IMG/VR virus record: IMGVR_UViG_2037747001_000002 | Coordinates: 1 to 27,481 of that record | Direction: 5' to 3' (one strand) | Source: a virus | Length of the DNA stretch: 27,481 bases | Shown: positions 1 through 23,301 of the stretch, piece after piece | How positions within the stretch are numbered: position 1 is the first letter of the stretch | How the letters are laid out: each line of letters begins with the position of its first letter | The notes under the pieces: model-generated | The model's input: the letters and a program-made list of their open reading frames with translations, nothing else | Databases searched by the model: none | What the model was told of the DNA's origin: nothing | Translations under genes and position numbers: made by a program

Positions 1-82
1 ATGATATATCCCTCCTTTTATTGTATCTGTTTAATATGTATTTTCTCATGGAATATAAAATTTACTCATTTATTTTAAACTG

Positions 83-146
83 CACAAAAAGCACAAAATT
101 TATATAGAATATACACTAACTATCAATTAACACAAAAAACACAAAA
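83..146 (+). promoter_or_regulatory. Promoter with TATA box flanked by two CACAAAA-N2-CACAAAA pairs
   Basis: TTTATATA at 99-106; CACAAAA at 83, 92, 131 and 140. GGAGG on the minus strand at 15-11 suggests a divergent gene starting just left of the window. Confidence 0.55.
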
Positions 147-178
147 CTTTTAAAAAGAATTTAGTGAGGTGTTTGTAG

Positions 179-646
179 ATGAAAGTTAAGGAGAAATCTA
201 GGGGCGAGTTAGCTCTTGAGAAGTTGCAAAGGTCGTATAATAGGATTGAAGAGTTAGAAAAAAAGGATAAAAAACAACTGGAAAAAATAGACATAAAAAA
301 CACGTTAAAATCCTTAGTTAAAAGTAGTAAGAATAAAGGAATCAATGGAGATTATTCTTATTTTTCTTCTTTTTTAGGGGATATGCATACTGTTACTTCA
401 TCTTTCCCCTCGATATTTACAGTCCAAACTAGTTTATCGCCCCATTCTAGATTTAAGAATTGCATAACCTCTTTAGGAACGATTGTTCTTGTGGATTTCC
501 CTTTTGTATCAGATTTGCCTAGTTTGCTTTCGTATTTCATAAGCATATCCACTCCTATGTGTTTTCATGTATTTAGTCTTTCTTTTTTCATGTATATAAA
601 CATTCATGATTATATGAATCAAATCATGCCAAATATATTTATATGA
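179..646 (+). CDS. Small Lys/Glu-rich helical protein, paralog of ORF 714-836; only the first ~60 codons look genuinely coding
   Basis: RBS GAGGTG at 166-171; first 32 aa are 23/32 identical to ORF 714-836; the remainder runs antisense through the AbrB gene. Confidence 0.45.
   Translation: MKVKEKSRGELALEKLQRSYNRIEELEKKDKKQLEKIDIKNTLKSLVKSSKNKGINGDYSYFSSFLGDMHTVTSSFPSIFTVQTSLSPHSRFKNCITSLGTIVLVDFPFVSDLPSLLSYFISISTPMCFHVFSLSFFMYINIHDYMNQIMPNIFI
358..540 (-). CDS. AbrB/MazE/SpoVT-fold DNA-binding protein, candidate viral repressor
   Basis: STRTIVPKEVMQFLNLEWGDKLVW matches the swapped-hairpin signature; RBS GGAGTG 8 nt before the ATG at 540. Confidence 0.8.
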   Translation of the reverse strand: MKYESKLGKSDTKGKSTRTIVPKEVMQFLNLEWGDKLVWTVNIEGKDEVTVCISPKKEEK

Positions 647-683
647 TGACTTACAACTATCATACATGACAACCTACATGACA
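565..683. promoter_or_regulatory. Divergent promoter with TACATGA operator-like motifs
   Basis: Minus-strand TTTATATA 600-593; plus-strand TTTATATG 638-645; TACATGA at 663 and 675 (+) and at 594-588 and 571-565 (-). Confidence 0.6.
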
Positions 684-713
684 GTTGTTAAGAAGTTTTT
701 GAGGTGTTTGTAG

Positions 714-836
714 ATGAAGGTAAACGAGAAGTCTAAGGGTGAATTAGCACTGGAGAAGTTGAAAAATTCCTTTTGCAGGATTGAAGAGTTGGAAGAGAAG
801 AATAAAGAGGTTAATAAGAACAGGAGGGGTAAGTGA
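714..836 (+). CDS. 40-aa Lys/Glu-rich protein (MKVNEKSKGELALEKLKNSFCRIEELEEKNKEVNKNRRGK)
   Basis: RBS GAGGTG at 701; paralog of ORF 179; stop abuts the next ATG. Below the ORF-track size cutoff. Confidence 0.7.
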   Translation: MKVNEKSKGELALEKLKNSFCRIEELEEKNKEVNKNRRGK

Positions 837-953
837 ATGGTTTCTGGTAAACATGTGGCTCCATGGTTGAGTGAAGATGATTTCAAAGAATTAACAGATG
901 AATTAAACCGTGAAGAATATCTGCGAAGGAGTAAGAGGAGGGAGGATAAATGA
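837..953 (+). CDS. 38-aa hypothetical protein (MVSGKHVAPWLSEDDFKELTDELNREEYLRRSKRREDK)
   Basis: ATG directly after the upstream TGA; ATGA overlap with ORF 950; GGAGGGG upstream. Confidence 0.6.
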   Translation: MVSGKHVAPWLSEDDFKELTDELNREEYLRRSKRREDK

Positions 954-1234
954 TAGCCCTAACTTCCATTTTTCATTTTGCCTTACCAGCTGCACGAGAG
1001 GTGGATGTTTCAGGTGAAGAGTTGGATCTGGTTCAGGAGGGTGATTTGATTGCCAATACGAATACAGGTAAGGTTCACCGTGCAGGGTGCAGGGCCATCA
1101 ATATGATGAAGCCTGAACATGTTTGGCATACGGATACAACTGAGGGTCTCAGCCTATGTGGTTGGTGTTACAAGAAATCTGATGTTGTGAGTGTTTTGGA
1201 TCAGGTGACTATGGACGAATTCACAAGTAAATAG
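950..1234 (+). CDS. Zinc-binding protein resembling the Ada metal-binding domain
   Basis: IANTNTGKVHRAGC...LSLCGWC pattern (H-x3-C ... CxxC); RBS GGAGG. Confidence 0.6.
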   Translation: MIALTSIFHFALPAAREVDVSGEELDLVQEGDLIANTNTGKVHRAGCRAINMMKPEHVWHTDTTEGLSLCGWCYKKSDVVSVLDQVTMDEFTSK

Positions 1235-1243
1235 GTGATGTAG

Positions 1244-2113
1244 TTGATGCGGAAGTTGAATGTCTTGGATCTGAAGGCTCATCCGCTTAATAAACGCTTG
1301 TATGGTAAGGAAGAGCCGGATGTGGAGTTAATTGAAAGCATAAAAACACATGGTGTTCTTGTACCCTTAACGGTTTTACAGGATGGGACGATTATTAGTG
1401 GTCATCGCAGGTGGAGAGCTGCAATGGACATGAAAAATCCTCCTAAACTGCCCTGTAACATTGTGGGATATCCGGATAAGCTGGCTGAGGAGGAGGCGGT
1501 GATTGAGCATAACAGGCAGCGTCGTAAAACCTTCTCACAACTCATGAATGAATGCAAAGCCCTTGAGGAGATTTACAGGGAACGGGCAGATAAGAACCGA
1601 TTATCATGTTTGAAGCAGTATCGTAAAACCCTTGAGAAAGAAGTTTGTGAACCTGTAGGTCGTGTGCGGGACCGTGTAGCAAGTCATGCAGAGATGTCTC
1701 CTCGTAAGTATGAGGAGGCTCGTAGGATCCTATCTGCTACTCAGAGTGAAGATCCCAAGGTCAAGAAGGTTGCAGTGGAACAGGTCCACAAATTAGACCA
1801 AAAGGAAACGAGTGTTCACAGGGCACATCAAGAGGTAAAGAAGAGTCAGGGCAAACCAGGCCGACCAACAGGTACAAAGGTTGAGGGTTTGGCTCAGGGA
1901 ACAGTGAAACGCTTAGTTCAGACGAAGCTGGATTTCTTTGAAACTAATGTTAGTCAAGTGGGTGACAAAGCAGCTGAACTCTTAAAGCAGCATTTAGAGG
2001 GTGAAACTGAGCGGATAACTATTAAAGCGTATAAGGCTGCGGAGCGTGAGGGTCGTAAAACTATACGTGAATCGGATATTAGAAGGGCGTTGGAAATGCC
2101 CAGTAAAAGATAG
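1244..2113 (+). CDS. ParB/Srx N-terminal domain + HTH + C-terminal archaeal histone-fold fusion protein
   Basis: LIESIKTHGVLVPL, IISGHRRWRAA and IEHNRQR are ParB motifs; C-terminal VGDKAAELLKQHLE...AYKAAEREGRKTIRESDIRRAL aligns with HMf-type histones. Confidence 0.85.
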   Translation: MMRKLNVLDLKAHPLNKRLYGKEEPDVELIESIKTHGVLVPLTVLQDGTIISGHRRWRAAMDMKNPPKLPCNIVGYPDKLAEEEAVIEHNRQRRKTFSQLMNECKALEEIYRERADKNRLSCLKQYRKTLEKEVCEPVGRVRDRVASHAEMSPRKYEEARRILSATQSEDPKVKKVAVEQVHKLDQKETSVHRAHQEVKKSQGKPGRPTGTKVEGLAQGTVKRLVQTKLDFFETNVSQVGDKAAELLKQHLEGETERITIKAYKAAEREGRKTIRESDIRRALEMPSKR

Positions 2114-2130
2114 AAATGGGGGAATTTTAG

Positions 2131-2379
2131 ATGGATGAGATTGTTAAATTGGCATTATCAGAGGTTTTGAAGCATTATAAGGAAACAGATGATTTGGAAC
2201 GTGCTGTGGAGGATATTGATAATATTCTTCACATACCACTGGGAGCTTCAGAGAATGTGGTATTTTGTCCTGCAGCATTACGTGGGGTGAATAAATTTTT
2301 AGAACCATGTAATTTTGTTAAAAATGGTGAGGAATGTCTTCACACAAAAAGGGAGGGATTCAAGGATGGGAGTTTTTAG
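2131..2379 (+). CDS. Hypothetical protein (Cys-containing)
   Basis: 82-aa ORF in a coupled operon. Confidence 0.6.
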   Translation: MDEIVKLALSEVLKHYKETDDLERAVEDIDNILHIPLGASENVVFCPAALRGVNKFLEPCNFVKNGEECLHTKREGFKDGSF

Positions 2380-2581
2380 ATTCAACCCAGAAATGGGCCT
2401 ATGCAGTCTTTTTCCCAGTAAAGGTCAGAAACTCCATGTCACACCTATTCAGGATCTTAAAAAATTCATGCCTGGAAATTTTGAGGACCTACCTTACCTA
2501 GACCACAAACTGAAGATCCAGGATCAGGTCCTGCTTTGTGTTGGTGGAGAATATTTTCAAATATGCTGTGTGAGGGGATAA
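2366..2581 (+). CDS. Hypothetical protein, 71 aa
   Basis: ATG at 2366 preceded by GGAGGG; the longer 2315 start of the ORF track is unlikely. Confidence 0.55.
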   Translation: MGVFRFNPEMGLCSLFPSKGQKLHVTPIQDLKKFMPGNFEDLPYLDHKLKIQDQVLLCVGGEYFQICCVRG

Positions 2582-2582
2582 G

Positions 2583-2858
2583 ATGAGGGATACATGTTAT
2601 GAATGCAAGCATCGTGGAACTGTGGTGAACAGTAGGCATAGTTCCTGTTGTCATCCTGAAGCTTTGAAGGTTGAACAGTCAGGGGAACTGCTTTTCATTT
2701 TAATGGAAGGCTATGTGAAGAATTCAAGAGTTAACCAGGTAACAAATATCAAAGTTGAAGCAGCTGAGCAGGGCATCAAAGGTGGATGGTTTATGTGGCC
2801 CTGGAACTTCGACCCACTATGGTTAATATCTTGTAGTGGATTTGAGGTGAAAGAATGA
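2583..2858 (+). CDS. Cys-rich hypothetical protein, probable metal binder
   Basis: CYEC...SCCH...WPWNFDPLWLISC; ATGA-coupled to the next ORF. Confidence 0.7.
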   Translation: MRDTCYECKHRGTVVNSRHSSCCHPEALKVEQSGELLFILMEGYVKNSRVNQVTNIKVEAAEQGIKGGWFMWPWNFDPLWLISCSGFEVKE

Positions 2859-2950
2859 ACTGTCCATTCTGTGGTGCTAAACTGGAATCTGCGCAACTGG
2901 GAACTATTCTGTTGTGGTTTTGTTCAAAGTGCAGATTCAATACTTACTAA
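2855..2950 (+). CDS. 31-aa zinc-ribbon microprotein (MNCPFCGAKLESAQLGTILLWFCSKCRFNTY)
   Basis: CPxCG...CxxC; RBS GAGGTGA; ATGA overlap with the upstream stop. Confidence 0.75.
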   Translation: MNCPFCGAKLESAQLGTILLWFCSKCRFNTY

Positions 2951-2963
2951 GGAGTGGTTTTTC

Positions 2964-3185
2964 ATGGTTAGTAAAATCCTAAAGGAGAAAGGGGAACGGA
3001 TCCAGAGGCTCCGTGATGAGGGTAAAACCTACCGTGAAATAGGGAGAATAGTGGGTGTTTCACCTGCCAGTGCATGGAGAGTTCTATCAGGAGAGGTTCC
3101 TATGGAATCATATCCGAAGGACCCTAACAAGAGAAGAGGACCATTTCCAGTGTATCTGCGTAGATATATGGAGGATTCAAAGTGA
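2964..3185 (+). CDS. Helix-turn-helix DNA-binding protein, 73 aa
   Basis: LRDEGKTYREIGRIVGVSPASAWRVL is a typical HTH; RBS GGAGTGG before the ATG at 2964. Confidence 0.8.
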   Translation: MVSKILKEKGERIQRLRDEGKTYREIGRIVGVSPASAWRVLSGEVPMESYPKDPNKRRGPFPVYLRRYMEDSK

Positions 3186-3328
3186 ACAGTTTATATCCAC
3201 GTAAGAAACCTTTCTGGACGGTGGAGCGTCGTAGATTGTTGTTTATTATTCTTTTATTAATCTTTTTAACCATGGCCCTGAGCATCCTTGGAGCTATGGA
3301 ACCGATTGAAATCTATAACATGGGGTGA
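3182..3328 (+). CDS. 48-aa single-pass membrane protein
   Basis: GTGA overlap with the upstream stop; RRRLLFIILLLIFLTMALSILGAM hydrophobic segment preceded by basic residues. Confidence 0.55.
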   Translation: MNSLYPRKKPFWTVERRRLLFIILLLIFLTMALSILGAMEPIEIYNMG

Positions 3329-3333
3329 TTTAT

Positions 3334-3912
3334 ATGACTGAGTTTAAGGAATCAGAAGGATGGGAAGAGATAATGGCCAGTGATGCTGAAAGATGGTGTC
3401 CTGAAAAACCTGGAGATGAACTTGTAGGTTTATATGTTGATAAAAAGGAGGATGTTGGTAAAAACCATGCAAATGCCTATTTCATTACCAACATTATCCA
3501 AGGTGAAGAGAAAGAATGGATAGTCTTTGGAACAGAAGACCTCAACCGTAAATTTGAACACATACCCATCGGTTATGAAGTAGGAATTGTATTCCAAGGA
3601 AGTAAACCCAGCAAACCACCCAAAAAACCATTCAAAATCTTCAAAGTCTACAAAAGACCAGCACCAGGAACACAACCAATAGTGGAAAGAGTAACCGAAG
3701 ACAAACCACAAATGTTCGCATCAGAAGAAGAAATGAAAACATGGCAATTAATCGAGGAAATTGCAGCAGACATTACCGTGGGACCTGTTGATAACAAGAG
3801 CATCCTCATGAGAGCGAATAGATGGGCACGTGAAGAAAGATTAGATCCAAAGGACTTTGATAGAATCAAAGCAGCCCTAGAGAAAAATCCTTTCAAGAAC
3901 GAGGGTAGATAA
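3334..3912 (+). CDS. Putative OB-fold single-stranded DNA-binding protein
   Basis: W-x-P-x3-GD-x-L-x-G-x-Y ... VFG-x3-L-x2-KF-x2-I-x2-G-x-EV-x-I-x-F-x-G pattern recalled from viral OB-fold SSB-like proteins; RBS GGGGTGA. Confidence 0.5.
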   Translation: MTEFKESEGWEEIMASDAERWCPEKPGDELVGLYVDKKEDVGKNHANAYFITNIIQGEEKEWIVFGTEDLNRKFEHIPIGYEVGIVFQGSKPSKPPKKPFKIFKVYKRPAPGTQPIVERVTEDKPQMFASEEEMKTWQLIEEIAADITVGPVDNKSILMRANRWAREERLDPKDFDRIKAALEKNPFKNEGR

Positions 3913-3913
3913 T

Positions 3914-4237
3914 ATGTCTACCCTCAATCGTATCCAAAAAGGATTCACTTTATACCGAATGGGCAATGTGGATCTGATCTTCCAGGATGAAAATGAAATC
4001 CAATTCAATGTAAAATCAGGTAAAACAGAGTACCTCGTATCCATCAATGAAGACGGAATTAAGTGTAATGTATGTGAAGATTGGCATTACAGGTGGAAGC
4101 ATGCAGCAAAAGTGGGTGGCAGCTTCCTCTGCAGCCATTGCTACGCCGCACTATTCAAATTAGGATACCTACGAGGAGTGGGAACACAAGCCACACTAGG
4201 AACCACAATAGAGGAGGCATTACAGGTTGGTAAATAA
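3914..4237 (+). CDS. SWIM-like zinc-finger protein
   Basis: YLVSINEDGIKCNVCEDW...CSHCYAAL; CxxC instead of the canonical CxC. Confidence 0.6.
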   Translation: MSTLNRIQKGFTLYRMGNVDLIFQDENEIQFNVKSGKTEYLVSINEDGIKCNVCEDWHYRWKHAAKVGGSFLCSHCYAALFKLGYLRGVGTQATLGTTIEEALQVGK

Positions 4238-4679
4238 AAAATACAAAGGCATCTACATGAAAATCGACTACGACCTCTACAGAAAATCCAAAGTCATAAT
4301 AAAAGACCGAACCAAAGACTACGAAGACTACCTACGCAGAAGAATCACAGTCAGTAACAGGGCAGAACTCCTCAAACTAGAAATAGAAGAACTCGACGAA
4401 CGCAGAAAAGCACTCATGAAAGAATACGACACAGAACTAGAACTACAAGAACAAATCAACATAACCGATGATAAAACCGTGGATGAGGTAGCTGAAATTT
4501 GCATTAACATCATAGAAAACCTAGGATACATAGGATTAGACAAAATGGAAACAATAGCAGACCTCCATGAAGTAAGCCTGGCAGAACTCAAAAAAACAAT
4601 ACCCACGGAATACCATGAGAAATTTGTCAAATACCACACAGACCCACAACCAGAAATCTGTAATCAAGTGACAATTTAA
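4227..4679 (+). CDS. Hypothetical protein with RHH-like N-terminus and coiled coil
   Basis: TTG start after GAGGAGG; YMKIDYDLYRKSK beta-helix pattern, then heptad-rich LLKLEIEELDERRKALMKE. Confidence 0.65.
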   Translation: MVNKKYKGIYMKIDYDLYRKSKVIIKDRTKDYEDYLRRRITVSNRAELLKLEIEELDERRKALMKEYDTELELQEQINITDDKTVDEVAEICINIIENLGYIGLDKMETIADLHEVSLAELKKTIPTEYHEKFVKYHTDPQPEICNQVTI

Positions 4680-4709
4680 AAAAATTTAAAAAAAGAAGGA
4701 TAGGGGGAA

Positions 4710-4805
4710 TTAACAGATTTTAAATGCAGTTTTTATTATTGCAATTATTAGATGTGCTGCTGCGAGTAGGACGTTAGCTATCGCTAACCCAGTTTCTAAT
4801 TTCAT
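4710..4805 (-). CDS. 31-aa hydrophobic peptide (MKLETGLAIANVLLAAAHLIIAIIKTAFKIC)
   Basis: RBS GAGGTGA 4 nt before the ATG; single amphipathic/TM helix; T-rich tract after the stop. Confidence 0.65.
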   Translation of the reverse strand: MKLETGLAIANVLLAAAHLIIAIIKTAFKIC

Positions 4806-4971
4806 AAATTCACCTCGTAATTTATCTTATTTAACCTAAAATTGGAGTATACTCGCGTTTTAAGAGAAATTCTCTACAATTATTCCCTTTTCCTCTTCTG
4901 ATATATAAAAGAAAAACTAAAATTTTGAGGATACAACACGGTAAATTAGTAATACAAAAAAGGGTGTTAAA

Positions 4972-5271
4972 ATGGAAATTCAGGAAAAACTCTTACAACC
5001 CAAAACAACATGGAATAAAATTGTTAAAAATGAGAAAACCCTGGAAAAATATGAAAAATTCTACCTAAAAAACGAAGCCCGACACGGAGAAGCCACAGCA
5101 AAAGAGATACTACAATCCCTAAAAGACAAAGGATGCTTACACACAGACTACAAACTAAACCCCAAACGCATCGGAAGAAAAATGGCAGAATATCCCTGGT
5201 TCAAACCCACTAAGAAATATGATAAAAGAACAAAACAGGACCGTATACACTGGAGATATATTAATATTTAA
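4972..5271 (+). CDS. Basic hypothetical protein, possibly winged-helix
   Basis: 99-aa ORF with GGGTG RBS; ATAKEILQSL...NPKRIGRKM pattern. Confidence 0.6.
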   Translation: MEIQEKLLQPKTTWNKIVKNEKTLEKYEKFYLKNEARHGEATAKEILQSLKDKGCLHTDYKLNPKRIGRKMAEYPWFKPTKKYDKRTKQDRIHWRYINI

Positions 5272-5311
5272 ATGTTAATTTATAATGAAGTAATGATAAG
5301 TGGTGGATGAT

Positions 5312-5668
5312 ATGGCGTTATTAACAAATGGAATAAGACTTTATAAAGAGAATGATATTGTTGCTGGGAATTACTACTTAAATAAAGATGTAAAATATGA
5401 GTTTGGATTTATTGATCCAAATATTAGTGAAGAAGCATTCAAAGAAAAATTAAGTAAAATGGGAGAAAAATATGTTATTAATGAAATAAATAATCTGAAA
5501 CGCTCTTTTTTTGTAGAAAAAACTGTTTTTACTCCCAAACCTAATGAAAAAGGAAATACTACTGAATTAGAATATCTGTTTAATAATATTATTGAGGAAA
5601 TACAAGAAGATTATGATAACTGTTTTGTAAAAGTTGATAAACTTTTAAGAGATGATCCTGTCGATTAA
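5312..5668 (+). CDS. AT-rich hypothetical protein (moron-like)
   Basis: Open frame with GGTGGA upstream; more AT-rich than its neighbours; T-rich terminator-like tract follows. Confidence 0.6.
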   Translation: MALLTNGIRLYKENDIVAGNYYLNKDVKYEFGFIDPNISEEAFKEKLSKMGEKYVINEINNLKRSFFVEKTVFTPKPNEKGNTTELEYLFNNIIEEIQEDYDNCFVKVDKLLRDDPVD

Positions 5669-5721
5669 TATCCATTTTCTTCTCGTATTTTTATTTACTC
5701 TTTTTTATTCTATTTTTACTC

Positions 5722-6051
5722 ATGAAGAGGATTTGTGAGTGGTGTGGTAAGCCTATAACTGTTTTGAGGCATGGTAATCAGCATTATCATAAGATAAATG
5801 ATGATGGAATTGAATGCTATAAGGAACACCGGAGAGAAGTAATCCGGGAAGCTCGGTCTAAGAATTACAGAAAAAACAGGGAAAGAGAAAACTTGAAAAG
5901 TACAGGTTCGGGTTATCTTAGAGAGCATCGTAAACAAGATTTTACTAGTGAATACGAAACGATACAAAAAGAATTGAACCGTCTTGGTATTAGAAAAATA
6001 GTGTTTACAGGTAATAGTGAAGAGGAGTTAATCCAACCTCTTCGAAACTAG
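5722..6051 (+). CDS. Basic protein with N-terminal CxxC (zinc-binding)
   Basis: MKRICEWCGKP...H...C followed by an Arg/Lys-rich helix. Confidence 0.65.
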   Translation: MKRICEWCGKPITVLRHGNQHYHKINDDGIECYKEHRREVIREARSKNYRKNRERENLKSTGSGYLREHRKQDFTSEYETIQKELNRLGIRKIVFTGNSEEELIQPLRN

Positions 6052-6088
6052 ACCCCTTTTATAAAACCAAATCGGAGACGACCTCCCT

Positions 6089-6607
6089 ATGGAGTTAATA
6101 TCTGTGGATGTCCTCACCCCGGGCATCCACCTCCTTACTAAAAAAGTTTACAAGTATCAATGGGATGAAGAATGGATAAAAACCGTCAAAGCTGGTTACT
6201 GTCCTGATTGTAAGAAACCATTCATTCACCGAGCTATTACCTGGACTTGCCCACGCTGTGGACTTTATCTAAAAGGTGCTATAGGTGCTTTATCTTATAC
6301 GTTAAAGGAATTGACAAAGGAAGATCCTAAAGTTGAACGTGAGGATAAGTGTCCTGAATGTGGGTCCACAGTTTTTGAGCATGATTTTAAGCATGATGAA
6401 ACTATCTGCAGAGGTTGTGGACTTGTATTGGAGGGACCTCCAGGATTCATTCCAGAGAATATCAAATTAAATTATCCTTTTGGTTATAATTTTGACGCTG
6501 AAGTAGTGTTCAGCTTTAGAAAGAGTGGAACACGTGTTATTGGATTTTATTATACTCCCACATATTCTAGGGATCCTCAGCAATTCACAACTTATATTAA
6601 AAAATAA
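6089..6607 (+). CDS. Double zinc-ribbon protein with a TFIIB/TFB-type ribbon
   Basis: CPDC...CPRCG, then CPECGSTVFEHDFKHDETICRGCGLVL matching the TFB N-terminal ribbon; no cyclin repeats. Confidence 0.75.
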   Translation: MELISVDVLTPGIHLLTKKVYKYQWDEEWIKTVKAGYCPDCKKPFIHRAITWTCPRCGLYLKGAIGALSYTLKELTKEDPKVEREDKCPECGSTVFEHDFKHDETICRGCGLVLEGPPGFIPENIKLNYPFGYNFDAEVVFSFRKSGTRVIGFYYTPTYSRDPQQFTTYIKK

Positions 6608-6615
6608 TTTTTATT

Positions 6616-6743
6616 GGTCCTGTACTGTAAAAATGAAGGAAATCATATCATCTTCTCTATGCCATATGAGTAAAACTTCCATCAGAAATTGTTGTATATC
6701 ACCAAACTTGAAATGGGACTTCTTTTTTTTACAGTATGGGACC
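6616..6743 (+). ncRNA. Putative structured RNA closed by an 18-bp stem
   Basis: 6616-6633 pairs fully with 6726-6743 if two G-U pairs are allowed; internal stems GAAGG/UCUUC and UUCCAU/AUGGGA. Confidence 0.4.
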
Positions 6744-6795
6744 TTTAAAACCATAAATTCACGTTAATCAGATCACAGTATTTGATTAGAAAAAA

Positions 6796-17407: not shown

Positions 17408-18697
17408 ATGGCAAATCGAGTATTAGGATTAAAAGAAGAAACCACATACGGTGTAGCCTCGGACACCGTACCAGATTGGCATCAAGAAGTAAGCAAAGCC
17501 AAAGCCACACCAAACACTAAACCAATGATTTACTCCGGAGGTTCAAGAAGTGTTAAAAAGGCAAAAGCAGGAGTAATGAAACCTGAAGCCAGTTATGATA
17601 TGAAATGTGACCTCAAGAGGATAGGACATTATATGAAAGCATTTCTAGGAAACTATGTCTTCACAGCAGGCGGAAACAACACAAACATACACGAATTCTG
17701 GGGAGGTGAAAACACCGAACTACCGAGTTTCACAGGATGGAGTACCTTTGACATAGTGATGAAAAAACTTGTTGGAATGCTCTGCGATAGTCTAAAACTC
17801 GAAGTTGGCGACGAGTTCATGGATGGATCTGTCGAGTGGAAATACCAGAATGAAACAAGAATCCTAGAAGTTCCGGAACCTGCAGATCAAAAAATGATCC
17901 CTGATGACACACTCATAGCATTCTATGACATAGCCATACTCTTAGATAGTGCAGCACCTCCAGGAATTGTGAGTAAATTCAGTTTTGAAGGCAAAAACAA
18001 CTTAAATGTTGATAAAACAATCGGATTGGGTAGTCGTAAGCCTCAAAAAAAGGCAAAAGGACAGAAAAGAGAGGTCACACTTAGTATTGAATCAACACTT
18101 GTCCAGGAAACTCTTGATCTGATTGCAAAGGCTGAATATGGGGAGGTTGCAGATTCTCCAAGTGACTGTAAACTCTATAAATTACCATTAAAAATTACAA
18201 TACACTTTTGTGAGGATGGAACTGACACTATGGAAATATTATTCCCCGAATGTATTTTCAGCGTGGACTATGAGGCTAGTGATGCGGATGAAATAGATGT
18301 GAAATTTGAACTTCAAACCATGGCAACAAAGAAAGTCACACTTGCAGATGGCACTACAGAAGTTGTCACAGATATGTATGTAAAACTTCAGAATAACCAG
18401 CCTAAAATCCAACCAGGAGTGCCAGGAACTGCTACGGTAAACTTCACAGTACAGAGTGATGATACAACACCAGTTCCACTTGCAGGGGCAACAGTCACAA
18501 TTACTAACAGAATTACAGATGCAGAATTAAGTAGTTCAGCAACAAGTGCATCTGGAGCTTGTTCTATTGCAACAGTACCACTCGGAAGTTATAATGTTGA
18601 AGTCAAGAGTTCTGAAAATGCGGTGTTAAATATAACACCTTTAATTGTGTCTGTGAATGAAACACCTGAAACATTTGTAATAACAGTAAAAGACTGA
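17408..18697 (+). CDS. Major tail tube protein with C-terminal Ig-like domain
   Basis: GLKEETTYG start typical of tail tube proteins; C-terminal VNFTV...PLAGATVTI...GSYNVEV Ig/CarboxypepD-reg-like pattern. Confidence 0.85.
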   Translation: MANRVLGLKEETTYGVASDTVPDWHQEVSKAKATPNTKPMIYSGGSRSVKKAKAGVMKPEASYDMKCDLKRIGHYMKAFLGNYVFTAGGNNTNIHEFWGGENTELPSFTGWSTFDIVMKKLVGMLCDSLKLEVGDEFMDGSVEWKYQNETRILEVPEPADQKMIPDDTLIAFYDIAILLDSAAPPGIVSKFSFEGKNNLNVDKTIGLGSRKPQKKAKGQKREVTLSIESTLVQETLDLIAKAEYGEVADSPSDCKLYKLPLKITIHFCEDGTDTMEILFPECIFSVDYEASDADEIDVKFELQTMATKKVTLADGTTEVVTDMYVKLQNNQPKIQPGVPGTATVNFTVQSDDTTPVPLAGATVTITNRITDAELSSSATSASGACSIATVPLGSYNVEVKSSENAVLNITPLIVSVNETPETFVITVKD

Positions 18698-19368: not shown

Positions 19369-22300
19369 ATGTCAGCACTCATGGAAATTATCATCAAAGC
19401 CATTGACAAATCTTCAGACGTTGCCAAAAAGGTTGAAAATAACCTCAAGGGTATGGGAGACAAGGCATCAAAAGCACTTGATAAAGCCTCACAATCAGGA
19501 GATAGATTCACAGGAGCAGTGGTAAAAGTAGGTCAAAGCGGAATATCTGCATATGCTCAATTATCTCAAAAACAGCAGAAGTATATCAACGGACTGAACA
19601 AAACACAGGGAATGCTCGACAGAATGGGGTTATCAGGTACTAAAATGGGTAATGCCGTCTTAAGAGGATATGATCTCATATTCAATGGAGCAAACAGAGT
19701 TAGATCAAGTGTGGAAAGTCTAAAACAGAAGATTGAAAGCACAACCGTCGGTAGTAAACTGATAACGGGGTTTAACTCCGTAAGTACCACTGTGTCCAAT
19801 GTAGGTTCAAAGATAAAAACAGCCATTGGTACAGGGTTGGATTCAGCTAAAACCAAAGTTCAAAACCTCAACAATAGCATGGGCGAACTCGGAACCGCTG
19901 TGACAAGTGCCTTTGGTGCCCTGGGAATGGGAAGCATCTATGATGCCACCATTGGCTTGGGTATGGTCCGTGAACAAATGACCACACTCATGAGTGCCAC
20001 GATGGGATCCGGTGCAGCTGCAAAAAGCTTTGTCAGCTACTTGGATCAGATGACAAACAATTCCCTTGTCAGCCTCAACGACCTGGGAAATGCAATGTCA
20101 AAGATAAAAATGAGCACAGGATTGACAAATGACCAGTTAAAACTCATAGCTCCAACCGTGAATGATATAGGTCAACGTGCCCTTTTAATGGGTAAAAGCA
20201 CTGGTGAAGCTCAAGATCTCATGGTTGCATCATTCAGAGGATTGAACGGCGAATTTGACATGCTGAAAACCAATTTCGGTATAACAAAACAAAGCCTTGT
20301 TGATGCAGGATGGAGTGGAGCCGCAACAGATGTTGAAGGATACAACGCCGCATTACAGAAAGTTCTTGCCAAGGGAGGATCAATGGATGGAATGTTACAA
20401 TCCACAACAGGACAGATCCAACTCGTCAAAAAAGGATTCAGCACAGCTGGTAGACAGATAGGTGAGGCTTTTTTACCTGCCATTAAGGTGATTTTAAGTT
20501 TCATGGTATCTCTTAAACAGACTAATCCTCTTGTTTTTAAATTAATGATTGTTGGAGCAGCTTTAATTTCAGCATTTGCCTTGTTATTACCTGTGATGGC
20601 TTCAATAATTGGTAGTTTCAAGTCATTCCTCATCTTCCTGGGCCTTGTTGAAGGAGGGGAAAATGCAACAACACTCGCAACAATACGAGATACTATTGCT
20701 AAAAAGGCAAGTGCGGTAGCATCTAAGGCGGCAGCAGTAGCAAACGGGGTTTTAACAGCTGCAAATACGGCTTATACTTTTGCTACAAGTGGTAGTGTTG
20801 GGGCCACGGTTGCTAGTACTGCTTCTAGGATAGCTCATGGAGTTGCTTCGGGTGCTGCTGCTGTAGCAACTGGGGTTTTAACAGCTGCACAATGGCTTTT
20901 AAATGCTGCTTTGAATGCAAATCCTATTGGAATTGTTATAATTGCTATTGTGGCTTTAGTTGCTATTCTTGCAGTGTTGTATAATAAGAATGAAACTGTA
21001 CGTAATGCGATTAATGCCCTTTGGAATGGTTTAAAAGTTCTTGGTGGTTATATTGTAAGTGGTTTGATGGCTGCGTGGAATGCTGTTGGTGGTGCTCTTT
21101 CCTGGATATGGGGAATACTTGTAAAAGTTGGTTCTTTTATTGCAGGAACATTTATAGCAGCATGGGTAAGTATAAGAGATGCATTGTCCCCTATTACATC
21201 AGCCCTTGGTAATTTATGGACTGCACTTAATATGGTGTGGAGTGCGTTTTCTGGTGGTCAAGCTGCACAGGCAAATAGTACATTTAACCAAATTGGAAAT
21301 GTTATTAATGTGTTATGGGCTGTGATTTCATCTGCATTACTCCCGGTCTTCCAAACCCTTTATGGTGTATTGGTTCAAGTTGCTACATTCATTGGGGGCT
21401 TTTTCAGTGCTGTTTGGACCACACTTAGTGGTTCAATCATGGCAGTAATTAACTATATTTCCCTGTTCATCAACAGCCTTGCACAGCTCCTTTCAGGTCA
21501 GATTACATTCAGCCAATTCGCAACTCAGATCTGGAATGGCTTTAAAACCATGCTGTTAAGTATTTTAATGTCTGTTATCTTAGGGGTGGGTTCTTGGGCT
21601 GCACAGTTACTCACAAAAGGTAAGAATGCAGCGGTTGGGTTTGTAACTGGAATCATATCATACATCGCAAGTTTACCCGGTCGTGTTTGGGCTTATCTCA
21701 TGTACACATTACAGAGGATTCAGAACTTCGCTAACAGTGCACGTGAAAGAGCAAGATCCGCTGCAAGTCAGATGGTAAGTGCATTTGCAAGTTACCTCTC
21801 AAGCCTTCCAGGTAAGATGTATACGTGGGGTAAGAATGCTATTAACAGTTTCATAAATGCAGTGATAAACAGTATTCCTGGTTTGCGTAGTGCTTTAAAC
21901 ATGGTCAGTTCTTTATTCCCTCACAGCCCTCCAAAGGAAGGGCCTTTATCTACCATCAAGCCTGAAAATATTTACAGTTGGGGTTCAACATTAGGGGATG
22001 CACTCACAAGTGGGGTGAATGACAGTACAGGTAGTTTATTCAGCGGCATTAAAACAGCTATAGATACAAAAGTTGATGTAACAACTAAAATGCCAGATGT
22101 ATCTGAAAACATGGGAAACACTCAGGTTTTAACAGAACAGACCACAAAAGCAATTGATGCAGCTAATATGACAAAGAATGGAGTAACAACTGCTTATAAT
22201 TCCATGGGAACCACCGTAACCAGTAGTTTAACCAGTATGGTGAATAATGATAAATCCGCATGGCTTAAAATCAAAGGAAACACGGATAGTCAGTTAAACA

Positions 22301-23301
22301 GCATAAAGAACAGTACCAAACAAGTAACAGGGCAGATGATTTCTGCATGGGATACTATGAAAAATGGTATTGTGAACAGTGCTGAAAAAATCAGATCCCA
22401 AAGCTCCGGAAAAATCAGTAATTTAAGTGTCAATATCAGGACATTTTATGACCGTTTAACCCATCCCACCAAATGGTTTGCAGGACCTGGACCTACACAT
22501 AGAAGGGTTATGTTTTCAACTAATTTTGCAGGTCCTGCAAGATCCTCTAAAGAGTTGCTTGACAGTTTCCTGATTAATGAATCACCATGTACTAACTGTT
22601 ATGCTGGAGGATGGAGCTCCAGCACACCTAATAACAATAAAATACGTGATGAACTCTACAACTACAATGTTACCATGCCAGACCTTAATGGCTTGAAAGT
22701 GGGGGATTTCAGCAACACCACAAACCCTCTCTTGGGAAACATGAGATTATTCGAGGCTGTGGCAGAAAAACTAATTGCACCAACCAGCTACGACTTCTAT
22801 TACAATGGACGCTATGGAAACCTTGAAGCCTTACAACGTGGTCGGTTCAATTGTTGGGATGGAGCCGAGATCATGGTGGGACTTGCAAATGCTATGGGAA
22901 TACCAGCCCATATGATTCATGGCCGTTGGGGAAATATTGGGCACATGGCAGCAATGGTTGGGGGTAAGATATTTGATACTACTCAACGCCAGAATCGTGG
23001 GGTATGGAGAGGCTCACCAGGTGTTAGTTTTGCCGGTCCTGGACCTGTTGGCTATACTCGAGATGAAAACAGTGAAAATAAGGATTCTGTGGTTATAAGT
23101 GGTGAATTCACGATTGTCCATGATTTAAAGAATATACCTTCTGGTTTAGATGAATCATTAATTGCTGAACTTATAAATAACGCAGCAGATGATGAAAATT
23201 TCTTTAAAAAATTATTAAACAATCGTAATTTCCTTAATGCTTTGGTTAAAAACCTTAAAATAAGGGATAATCGAATTAATCGTGGAGGAGCAATAGCATG
23301 A
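19369..23301 (+). CDS. Tape measure protein with C-terminal transglutaminase-like (Cys-His-Asp) domain
   Basis: 1310 aa, Ala/Gly-rich helical sequence with periodic Trp/Phe repeats; NCWD...GH...D near the C-terminus. Confidence 0.9.
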   Translation: MSALMEIIIKAIDKSSDVAKKVENNLKGMGDKASKALDKASQSGDRFTGAVVKVGQSGISAYAQLSQKQQKYINGLNKTQGMLDRMGLSGTKMGNAVLRGYDLIFNGANRVRSSVESLKQKIESTTVGSKLITGFNSVSTTVSNVGSKIKTAIGTGLDSAKTKVQNLNNSMGELGTAVTSAFGALGMGSIYDATIGLGMVREQMTTLMSATMGSGAAAKSFVSYLDQMTNNSLVSLNDLGNAMSKIKMSTGLTNDQLKLIAPTVNDIGQRALLMGKSTGEAQDLMVASFRGLNGEFDMLKTNFGITKQSLVDAGWSGAATDVEGYNAALQKVLAKGGSMDGMLQSTTGQIQLVKKGFSTAGRQIGEAFLPAIKVILSFMVSLKQTNPLVFKLMIVGAALISAFALLLPVMASIIGSFKSFLIFLGLVEGGENATTLATIRDTIAKKASAVASKAAAVANGVLTAANTAYTFATSGSVGATVASTASRIAHGVASGAAAVATGVLTAAQWLLNAALNANPIGIVIIAIVALVAILAVLYNKNETVRNAINALWNGLKVLGGYIVSGLMAAWNAVGGALSWIWGILVKVGSFIAGTFIAAWVSIRDALSPITSALGNLWTALNMVWSAFSGGQAAQANSTFNQIGNVINVLWAVISSALLPVFQTLYGVLVQVATFIGGFFSAVWTTLSGSIMAVINYISLFINSLAQLLSGQITFSQFATQIWNGFKTMLLSILMSVILGVGSWAAQLLTKGKNAAVGFVTGIISYIASLPGRVWAYLMYTLQRIQNFANSARERARSAASQMVSAFASYLSSLPGKMYTWGKNAINSFINAVINSIPGLRSALNMVSSLFPHSPPKEGPLSTIKPENIYSWGSTLGDALTSGVNDSTGSLFSGIKTAIDTKVDVTTKMPDVSENMGNTQVLTEQTTKAIDAANMTKNGVTTAYNSMGTTVTSSLTSMVNNDKSAWLKIKGNTDSQLNSIKNSTKQVTGQMISAWDTMKNGIVNSAEKIRSQSSGKISNLSVNIRTFYDRLTHPTKWFAGPGPTHRRVMFSTNFAGPARSSKELLDSFLINESPCTNCYAGGWSSSTPNNNKIRDELYNYNVTMPDLNGLKVGDFSNTTNPLLGNMRLFEAVAEKLIAPTSYDFYYNGRYGNLEALQRGRFNCWDGAEIMVGLANAMGIPAHMIHGRWGNIGHMAAMVGGKIFDTTQRQNRGVWRGSPGVSFAGPGPVGYTRDENSENKDSVVISGEFTIVHDLKNIPSGLDESLIAELINNAADDENFFKKLLNNRNFLNALVKNLKIRDNRINRGGAIA

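Follow-up and report, generated by a model that had tools for sequence, protein, structure and literature searches.

A ParB-like viral protein with a C-terminal archaeal-type histone fold, encoded by a predicted tailed virus of Methanobacteriaceae

The ParB protein of the Sulfolobus plasmid pNOB8 is made up of an N-terminal module (ParB-N), a linker and a CenpA-like C-terminal domain (ParB-C) that binds DNA non-specifically, and it belongs to an AspA-ParB-ParA partition system (Schumacher et al. 2015, via PMC5120986). A comparable arrangement was found in the protein encoded by a gene at positions 1244 to 2113 on the plus strand of IMG/VR virus record IMGVR_UViG_2037747001_000002, in which a ParB N-terminal module is followed by a flexible linker and a C-terminal histone-like fold. 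The stretch of DNA analysed, here called the window, is the complete linear record of 27,481 bp, which was estimated using CheckV to be ~73% complete. Both proteins are encoded by archaeal mobile elements, but pNOB8 ParB is specified by an aspA-parB-parA operon, whereas the gene in the window has other neighbours, and no ParA, AspA-like partner or ParA-binding motif was found with it. The C-terminal domain of pNOB8 ParB was recognised from its structure alone and likened to CenpA, whereas the fold in the viral protein is of the HMf type and can be detected by sequence. The viral protein also differs in its setting, which is a predicted tailed virus of a euryarchaeon that has histones of its own.

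The C-terminal domain of canonical ParB proteins dimerises and binds DNA non-specifically (as summarised in PMC12704722), and the C-terminal domain of the viral protein would be expected to do the same. The CTP-dependent clamps ParB/Spo0J, Noc and KorB further resemble it in having an N-domain with Box I-, II- and III-like motifs followed by a helix-turn-helix (HTH) domain, and they were its best matches in the PDB by both profile and fold. However, no ParB-type C-terminal dimerisation domain was detected in the viral protein using Pfam, its Box II reads GHRR rather than GERR, and a long helix and a variable linker lie between the N-domain and the HTH. In a 2025 survey of the ParB-CTPase fold, orphan fusion proteins were found to bind CTP, ATP or GTP, with a specificity that is unpredictable from sequence (PMC12704722). 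Fusions of ParB to DNA methyltransferases (phrog_498; PMC12704722), which are likewise carried by viruses and mobile elements, are closest to the viral protein over amino acids (aa) 1–205, with 35–47% identity, and share the same fold of ~210 residues with template modelling (TM) scores of 0.58–0.62. They differ in that a histone fold stands in the place of the methyltransferase in the viral protein, which has no catalytic DNA-modifying domain.

The archaeal histones HMfA, HMfB and HPhA (PMC6136690) share with the viral domain a three-helix fold, ~30% sequence identity, the RKT loop and the R52-D59 clamp, but the viral fold lies behind a 215-aa ParB module, includes a 6–7 aa insertion, and has Q in place of R19 and a larger residue in place of G16. 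Capstone variants of these histones (PMC7776873) are similar in that the dimer-dimer interface is not kept, though positions 49 and 62 are basic in the viral protein and not acidic or hydrophobic. Reports of viral histones deal mainly with the giant viruses of eukaryotes, and with a single class of truncated 'phage histones'. The phage histones (Schwab et al. 2024, PMC11390915) are also histone-fold proteins of tailed prokaryotic viruses, but in these the histone is N-terminal with a shortened alpha3, a tetramerisation helix lies at the C-terminus and an RxTxxxD-type motif is lacking, whereas in the protein described here the fold is C-terminal and joined to ParB, with an alpha3 of seven residues and an R-K-T...D motif.

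No description of an archaeal virus with an HMf-type histone fold, or of such a fold fused to ParB, was found in the literature searched. Histones are not mentioned in the text or available supplements of the ParB-fold survey (PMC12704722), nor ParB in a survey of archaeal histones (PMC13260811), and a review of viral histones mentions neither ParB nor archaeal viruses (PMC9145170). A first-pass annotation of the window, made from its sequence, had pointed to no known description of the architecture, and this holds for the fusion itself in the literature searched but not for the general design, for which pNOB8 ParB is a precedent (PMC5120986). It is a ParB-fold fusion whose histone-like C-terminal domain has this precedent, and what appears to be new is the HMf-type fold on a viral ParB chassis. 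It represents a second, independent case after pNOB8 of a histone-like fold located where the ParB C-terminal domain would be, and indicates that a viral ParB chassis can bear a structural DNA-binding domain instead of an enzyme. The protein is small (288 aa) and soluble-looking, which should make it amenable to direct in vitro study, and it is of clear interest to the archaeal chromatin, ParB switch and archaeal virus fields.

Architecture of the fusion protein

The open reading frame (ORF) encodes 289 aa when read from the TTG codon at 1244, with the stop codon at 2111–2113, and all parts of the protein described here are encoded on the plus strand. The HMf-type histone fold is located at 1895–2110 and includes helices alpha1 (aa 218–232), alpha2 (aa 241–268) and alpha3 (aa 276–282), with GRKT at aa 270–273 in the L2 loop and a short tail to aa 289. 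The Pfam family CBFD_NFYB_HMF (PF00808) was matched at aa 235–283 (25.7 bits against a cut-off of 21.4; E = 1.4e-5), while the score of 38.9 bits to the NCBIfam archaeal histone model (NF043032) was below the cut-off of 50. When the last 85 aa were used in a PDB sequence search, HPhA (0.0015), HMfA (0.013) and also HMfB were matched.

An AlphaFold2 (AF2) model of the C-terminal domain (C-domain), built as a monomer from an alignment of 14 sequences that included host histones, had a mean pLDDT (predicted local distance difference test) score of 88.8 and contained three helices of 15, 28 and 7 residues. The model was matched by Foldseek to HPhA (TMt 0.88) and HMfB (TMt 0.86), each with a root-mean-square deviation of 1.3 Å, and the values for HPhA, HMfB and HMfA ranged from 0.86 to 0.89. 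A comparison with 48,161 representative chains using VIA-align aligned 66 of 66 residues with HPhA (Z 8.9), and histone-fold proteins accounted for all 50 among the matches listed. With a model of the full-length protein as the Foldseek query, in which the three helices of the fold span aa 218–231, 241–268 and 276–282, the C-terminus matched HMfA, HPhA, HMfB and an Asgard histone. The pNOB8 ParB-C chain was absent among the Foldseek and VIA-align matches listed for the C-domain, though the folds may still agree. According to these models, the C-domain is a genuine archaeal-type histone fold. The first-pass annotation had predicted a three-helix fold beginning at about nucleotide (nt) 1889 (aa 216) and ending with GRKTIRESDIRRAL, which agrees with a modelled alpha1 that begins at aa 218 and with the presence of that sequence at aa 270–283.

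The residues of the fold were compared by alignment with HMfA and with three canonical histones encoded by the genome of an inferred host, an uncultured Methanobacteriaceae metagenome-assembled genome (MAG) that carries two copies of the fusion gene. The C-domain aligned end to end with the host histones at 31–36% identity. The L2 RKT and the R52-D59 clamp are retained as R271, K272, T273 and D278; K272 and D278 are invariant across eight fusion proteins, and R271 and T273 are found in seven, differing only in P0135. In archaeal histones L46, H49, D59, L62 and G16 are required for the tetramer and hypernucleosome, and R10 and R19 are minor-groove anchors (PMC6136690). All seven are kept by the three host-MAG histones. 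In the viral protein, D59 is kept as D278 but the other tetramer-interface positions are changed (L46 to A265, H49 to R268 and L62 to R281), with position 49 being Arg or Ser in the fusion family. The G16 position is N235, and is N, K, P or R across the members. The equivalent of R10 is R223, which is R or K in most members and Thr in P0135, and the equivalent of R19 is Q238 in seven of the eight proteins, the eighth, P0135, being without that stretch. There is also an insertion of 6–7 residues in L1 after alpha1, unlike all host paralogues. As L46A, H49R and L62R are present and G16 and R19 are replaced while the RKT and R-D clamp are kept, the fold is expected from its sequence to be a DNA-binding dimer that does not polymerise into a hypernucleosome.

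In hosts whose DNA is packaged by histones, a viral histone fold of this kind, with its DNA contacts retained and its oligomerisation interface gone, offers a natural way to probe the reading, capping or exclusion of archaeal chromatin during infection. One explanation for the fold is that it heterodimerises with HMf-type histones of the host, caps or disrupts hypernucleosomes because the tetramer interface is lost, and docks the ParB module on host chromatin, with the outcome that host transcription is remodelled or DNA is freed for the virus. The hosts are histone-bearing, the MAG with two fusion copies having the three canonical histones described above, and the viral fold aligns with these from end to end. 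Archaeal histone paralogues are able to mix. In addition, L46, H49 and L62 are all replaced, and loss of H49 is diagnostic for the natural 'capstone' histones of Methanobacteriales (PMC7776873). However, natural capstones are acidic or hydrophobic at position 49 (PMC7776873) where the fusion family has Arg or Ser, the insertion after alpha1 separates the viral fold from all host paralogues, and in a heterodimer with one ParB arm the HTH and the conserved nucleoside triphosphate (NTP) pocket would have no obvious use. This explanation is possible but unlikely. The same doubtful standing applies to the proposal that the virus-made histone pairs with host histones and inserts a ParB arm that is switched by nucleotide into the hypernucleosomes of host or virus, stopping their growth. 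If such pairing does occur, the protein would be the first virus-encoded effector known to hijack archaeal histone chromatin, and would link ParB-type spreading with histone-type wrapping.

Histones of 110–112 aa with a C-terminal tail of ~40 aa and Tyr at the H49 position were also seen in some Methanobacteriaceae genomes (L070:1372–1710; L071:1498–1830). These are host variants that are unrelated to the viral fusion.

The N-terminal part of the protein includes a ParB/Srx NTP-binding domain (1250–1528; aa 3–95), with Pfam ParB_N (PF02195) matched at aa 3–88 (33.4 bits against a cut-off of 26.3; E = 4.9e-8). For the first 200 aa, PHROGs gave matches to ParB-like families and also to phrog_498, a ParB-methyltransferase family. 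In the PDB sequence search the N-terminus matched ParB/Spo0J/Noc N-domains at about 1e-6, and a family profile searched against the PDB matched ParB (2.9e-15) and, over positions 21–191, Noc. The full-length AF2 model, a monomer built from an alignment of 31 sequences, had a mean pLDDT of 83.6, with values above 90 in the N-domain (aa 1–95). Using Foldseek, the N-domain was matched with a probability of 1.0 to ParB-CDP, Noc, KorB, PadC and sulfiredoxin, with SbnI also among the fold matches, and 225–260 columns were aligned to C-terminally truncated ParB, Noc and KorB structures that comprise the N-domain and the HTH domain. The best structural matches of aa 1–~215 included two pNOB8-like ParB-N structures, namely 5k5d (E = 9.6e-5), which had the highest query TM (TMq) score of 0.43 over 217 columns, and 5k5a (E = 3.9e-4; TMq in the range 0.42–0.43). 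No sequence match to pNOB8 ParB was obtained in the PDB sequence and profile searches.

The ParB motifs reported in the first-pass annotation are present. The Box II or P motif GHRRWRA (GxxRxxA; 1400–1420; aa 53–59) is found in all nine family members checked, with G53, H54, R55, R56, A59 and A60 invariant in the family. The sequence IEHNRQR at aa 87–93 includes the Box III-like EHNRQR (1505–1522; aa 88–93), which can be aligned with ENLQR in ParB if one inserted residue is allowed and is conserved as E.NRQR, N90, Q92 and R93 being invariant. A Box I-like SIxxHG[VI]L.P is also conserved, and HG[VI]L.P is invariant. The motifs of an NTP pocket are therefore retained and nucleotide binding is predicted. 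A CTP-gated sliding clamp, as envisaged earlier, is an inference that goes beyond these motifs, as the nucleotide used cannot be told from the sequence (PMC12704722).

An alternative role for a retained NTP pocket would be that the ParB/Srx domain is itself catalytic or nucleotide-consuming, as a nuclease, kinase-like enzyme or NTPase, and that the HTH and histone fold anchor it on DNA. The ParB fold is an ATP-binding enzymatic module in SerK, SbnI and sulfiredoxin, the last two of which are among the fold matches, different fusion proteins bind CTP, ATP or GTP (PMC12704722), and PHROG relatives of the viral protein carry the label 'ParB-like partition nuclease'. However, that label is an annotation with no tested function behind it, no catalytic motif was identified beyond the NTP pocket, and the best sequence and structure matches, extending over the N-domain plus HTH domain, are the CTP-clamp proteins ParB, Noc and KorB. 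Delivery of an enzyme in this way is considered quite improbable.

In the AF2 model, the N-domain is followed by a long helix (1532–1609; aa 97–122) and then a low-confidence linker at aa ~125–140, the latter varying in length and being 30–50 aa longer in relatives. The ParB-type HTH DNA-binding domain (1664–1849) was modelled with helices at aa 141–148 and 153–165, which bear out the central HTH segment proposed earlier, and further helices at aa 171–185 and 191–202. Pfam HTH_ParB was not matched in the fusion protein. The domain is supported by the model, in which helices 141–202 fall inside the Foldseek alignments to the N-domain and DNA-binding domain of ParB, Noc and KorB, and by the Noc profile match. 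This region is the least conserved part of the family, with 16–51% identity outside the near-identical P0002. A basic flexible linker (1850–1894; aa 203–217), with pLDDT below 50, then leads to the histone fold and contains the AT-hook-like KPGRP (nt 1853–1867; aa 204–208) noted in the first-pass annotation. The motif K/R-x-GRP-x-G is found just before alpha1 in six of eight fusion proteins, and the GRP linker may add a minor-groove contact.

Relatives of the fusion protein

The fusion is not a one-off, as at least eight relatives with 33–95% identity were found to carry both ParB and the histone fold, their sources being Methanobacteriaceae proviruses and metagenomic contigs. They include P0002 (95% identical, 288 aa), P0003, P0004, P0005 and P0122 (each 50–54% identical), P0123 (40% identical, 444 aa), which has a full-length match to PF00808 with 32.9 bits, and P0135 (34% identical), in which a histone-like C-terminus was recognised by alignment. 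Full-length copies were present in two of 301 Methanobacteriaceae species genomes, and twice in one of them, while a scan of 185,579 species genomes gave full-length matches only in that Methanobacteriaceae MAG. In the relatives with 50–54% identity, the histone part is 57–77% identical, ParB_N 56–68% and the HTH region 45–51%. Judged by these sequence identities, constraint on the histone fold is no weaker than on the ParB domain, which fits a constrained effector domain combined with a diverging HTH specificity domain.

A third copy, in the same metagenome assembly, is split. It occupies 9230–10228 in contig L002, as pieces at 9230–9436, 9382–9636, 9831–9983 and 10004–10222, and represents either a decaying gene or indel errors in the assembly. 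The last piece, P0266 (75 aa, 73% identical to the C-domain), which gene callers consequently list as a histone by itself, had been a candidate for a free-standing viral histone but was rejected when the ParB part was found using tblastn just upstream, in three other frames. A second candidate, P0267 (68 aa), was rejected as a stand-alone histone because it lies on a 1.2-kb contig and begins within alpha1.

The split copy, and the rarity of the family in Methanobacteriaceae genomes (2 of 301), could be taken to mean that the fusion is accidental or decaying and has no function of its own. However, intact full-length copies with 33–95% identity are present in two host genomes as well as on several independent contigs, conservation is highest in the histone part, and the functional motifs are invariant. 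An accidental origin without function is therefore exceedingly improbable.

The nearest relatives of aa 1–205 are fusions of ParB to DNA methyltransferases of the N6/N4 or MT-A70 type, found in bacterial and archaeal viruses and mobile elements, and these make up most of the 749 clusters that matched at E<1e-10. Models in the ESM Atlas had residues 1–214 in common with the viral protein at TM 0.53–0.62, and were followed by a C-terminal methyltransferase, DruA or HTH_3. An ESM Atlas feature search returned only ParB_N clusters, with scores below 0.9. The first-pass annotation had suggested that the histone fold replaces the ParB dimerisation domain. This is correct as to place, the fold being where the ParB C-terminal domain would be, but not as a history, as the nearest relatives have methyltransferases there.

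In other Methanobacterium proviruses (L011:10001–11620; also P0009–P0011, P0147 and P0162), the same slot was found to hold a gene for the same ParB chassis with another C-terminus. This is long and acidic/lysine-rich and ends in a conserved motif of ~40 aa, IKxLI...W.W/MDDH.LL..VL, for which no family was found.

Partition and the proposed mode of action

The first-pass annotation had proposed that the protein could tether the viral episome to histone-coated host DNA for segregation. For this, the protein would bind a viral centromere, and there is some reason to consider it, as the ParB N-domain and HTH form the architecture of a partition protein, pNOB8 ParB, which belongs to a real partition cassette, joins a ParB N-domain to a C-domain that is histone-like and binds DNA non-specifically (PMC5120986), and the window is only ~73% complete, such that a partner gene could fall outside it. 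However, no ParA-family gene was found in the window using PF13614 and PF01656, in agreement with the earlier statement that ParA is missing, and there was none in the gene tables of the relatives' contigs L002–L005. The ParA-binding motif (L/F/I)G(K/R)G(L/F/I), as defined in PMC12704722, was absent from P0001 and eight relatives, that is from nine family members. The partition-protein model TIGR00180 gave 34.4 bits against a cut-off of 58.45 and covered profile positions 25–102 of 186, which is the N-domain only; in this and in the missing motif the protein again differs from the CTP clamps. Moreover, archaeal ParB homologues are rarely linked to ParA (PMC12704722), several relatives of the fusion are carried by integrase-bearing elements, of which at least two are inside host contigs, and no parS-like repeats were found in the window. 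Partition would be possible only if the partner is in the missing quarter of the genome, and a role in segregation or tethering is considered very unlikely. On the best explanation of the data the fusion protein has no ParABS partition function, and DNA packing or the control of genes is its most likely role, rather than genome partition.

The explanation preferred is that the protein is an early-expressed DNA-binding protein, built on a viral 'orphan ParB' chassis (aa 1–205), which forms a histone dimer and accumulates as a clamp on viral DNA; we give this about an even chance of being right. The C-terminal histone fold would form a handshake homodimer, tying two chains together as the canonical ParB C-domain does, and the dimer would offer a non-specific DNA-bending surface made up of the RKT loop, the R-D clamp, a basic alpha1 and the GRP linker. 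Since G16, the L1 arginine and all but one of the four residues of the tetramer interface are replaced, this would remain a lone dimer and not a growing hypernucleosome. The HTH would select the loading site, and nucleotide binding at the N-domains would close the dimer around DNA. It would go on to accumulate on DNA, most probably that of the virus, at an early time after entry or induction, and the resulting virus-specific nucleoprotein domain could control early and late transcription or exclude host histones or nucleases.

ParB-family proteins that regulate transcription are known, examples being KorB, VirB and BisD (PMC12704722), and activation of a thymine dioxygenase by a phage ParB is specific to double-stranded DNA (PMC13229309). 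The methyltransferase found in the same position in relatives, together with the ParB-dependent dioxygenase, suggests that the chassis gives its partner domain access to duplex DNA. Coupling of ParB to chromatin, as originally proposed, is reasonable at the level of architecture, though the segregation role attached to it is unsupported.

Several observations weigh against a clamp on viral DNA. Mutations in the NTP pocket of the ParB-dioxygenase pair left function unaffected (PMC13229309), and thus NTP gating is not guaranteed for viral orphan ParBs. In the same vein, 17 of 28 purified ParB-fold proteins did not bind NTP in vitro (PMC12704722). The closest relatives of the chassis carry methyltransferases and not dimerisation domains, hence a closed-clamp topology may never have belonged to this lineage. 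The first helix of the histone fold (alpha1) was modelled with low confidence in the full-length monomer, at a pLDDT of 41–45. Finally, no repeated palindrome or parS-like site, hence no loading site, was found in the window when positions 1–8400 were searched for repeats and the whole window for perfect palindromes with 7-nt arms, although a parS-type site could be short or lie outside the window.

Gene position, host and virus genome

The ribosome-binding-like motif GGTGAT, read from the sequence at 1235–1240 on the plus strand, lies 6 nt before an ATG at 1247. As GGTGAT precedes this codon and a start there gives 288 aa, equal to the length of the 95%-identical P0002, ATG 1247 is probably the true start. 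The fusion gene is at or near the head of a rightward early operon. A co-oriented gene for a Cys/His-rich protein of 94 aa (950–1234, plus strand), for which no Pfam family was matched, ends 10–13 nt before it and was found in the same position in contigs L003 and L006 (tblastn, 49–53% identity, same order). In L003 and L006 the upstream gene and fusion gene are followed by homologues of the window's early genes for proteins of 195, 107, 99 and 150 aa, and the same early genes lie downstream of the split copy in L002. A small divergent gene (358–552, minus strand) encodes a weakly MazE/AbrB-like protein, scoring 19.1 bits to Pfam MazE_antitoxin, below the cut-off of 24.7. It is a candidate for a lysis-lysogeny or immunity regulator facing the rightward early operon, and similarly placed small minus-strand genes are present in L005 and L011.

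An integrase gene is near the fusion gene in L002, L003, L005, L006 and L011, and a few kb upstream of it in L002, L003 and L006. In L005, the fusion gene is the first rightward gene after the integrase and the small divergent gene, with terminase and portal genes downstream. The elements in L002 and L003 are inside host contigs, between ordinary cellular genes. This is where a temperate virus would have an early function in regulation or protection, and not the position of a plasmid-type partition cassette.

Two of these, L003:5568–16000 and L002:2695–15000 (Methanobacteriaceae MAG; same metagenome assembly), are short integrated elements of ~10–13 kb that carry the ParB-histone early operon and an integrase, and no terminase or capsid genes were recognisable in them before the host genes resume. 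There was also no match to the window's terminase within 10 kb in L006. Elements of the L002, L003 and L006 type may be defective proviruses or satellite-like elements that share the early module of the virus.

The family scans identified a head-tail morphogenesis module of standard type in the window, with genes for a large terminase (8333–9799), portal (9796–11376), Mu-F-like protein (11195–12880), XkdF-type protease (13446–14459) and tail tube protein (17408–18697). An ORF of 1310 aa (19369–23301) is likely to encode the tape measure protein, judging from its size and position. No nucleotide similarity to known phages was found when the window was compared with a phage collection. Between the early and packaging genes, a 172-aa protein (6089–6607) has a TFIIB-type zinc ribbon (Pfam, 43 bits) and further zinc-ribbon matches but is without the TFB core domain, and this protein indicates that the window is archaeal. 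Full-length homologues of the fusion gene were found in the uncultured Methanobacteriaceae MAG, and a 67%-identical fragment of the fusion protein is annotated from a Methanobacterium paludis MAG. From these relatives, the host is inferred to belong to Methanobacteriaceae, and the best explanation of the window is that it comes from a temperate, tailed virus of these methane-producing archaea.

No polymerase, primase, helicase or Orc1/Cdc6 was recognised in the early region (2131–7400) using Pfam and PHROGs. The virus may rely on host replication, or its replication genes may fall in the missing ~27%. The early neighbours of the fusion gene were mostly uninformative in Pfam and PHROGs, the exceptions being an HTH protein (2871–3185), the weak MazE/AbrB-like protein and a weak TerS match. 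The last of these, a weak small-terminase match, was to the 203-aa ORF at 7712–8323, and three tandem 11-bp units (TTCACTAAATT-like) at 7671–7713 lie directly 5' of it. They may serve as a site for TerS binding or for packaging. At the left end of the window, which is AT-rich, a 117-nt direct repeat (155–271 and 690–806; 79% identical) spans the starts of two small paralogous ORFs that flank the MazE/AbrB-like gene.

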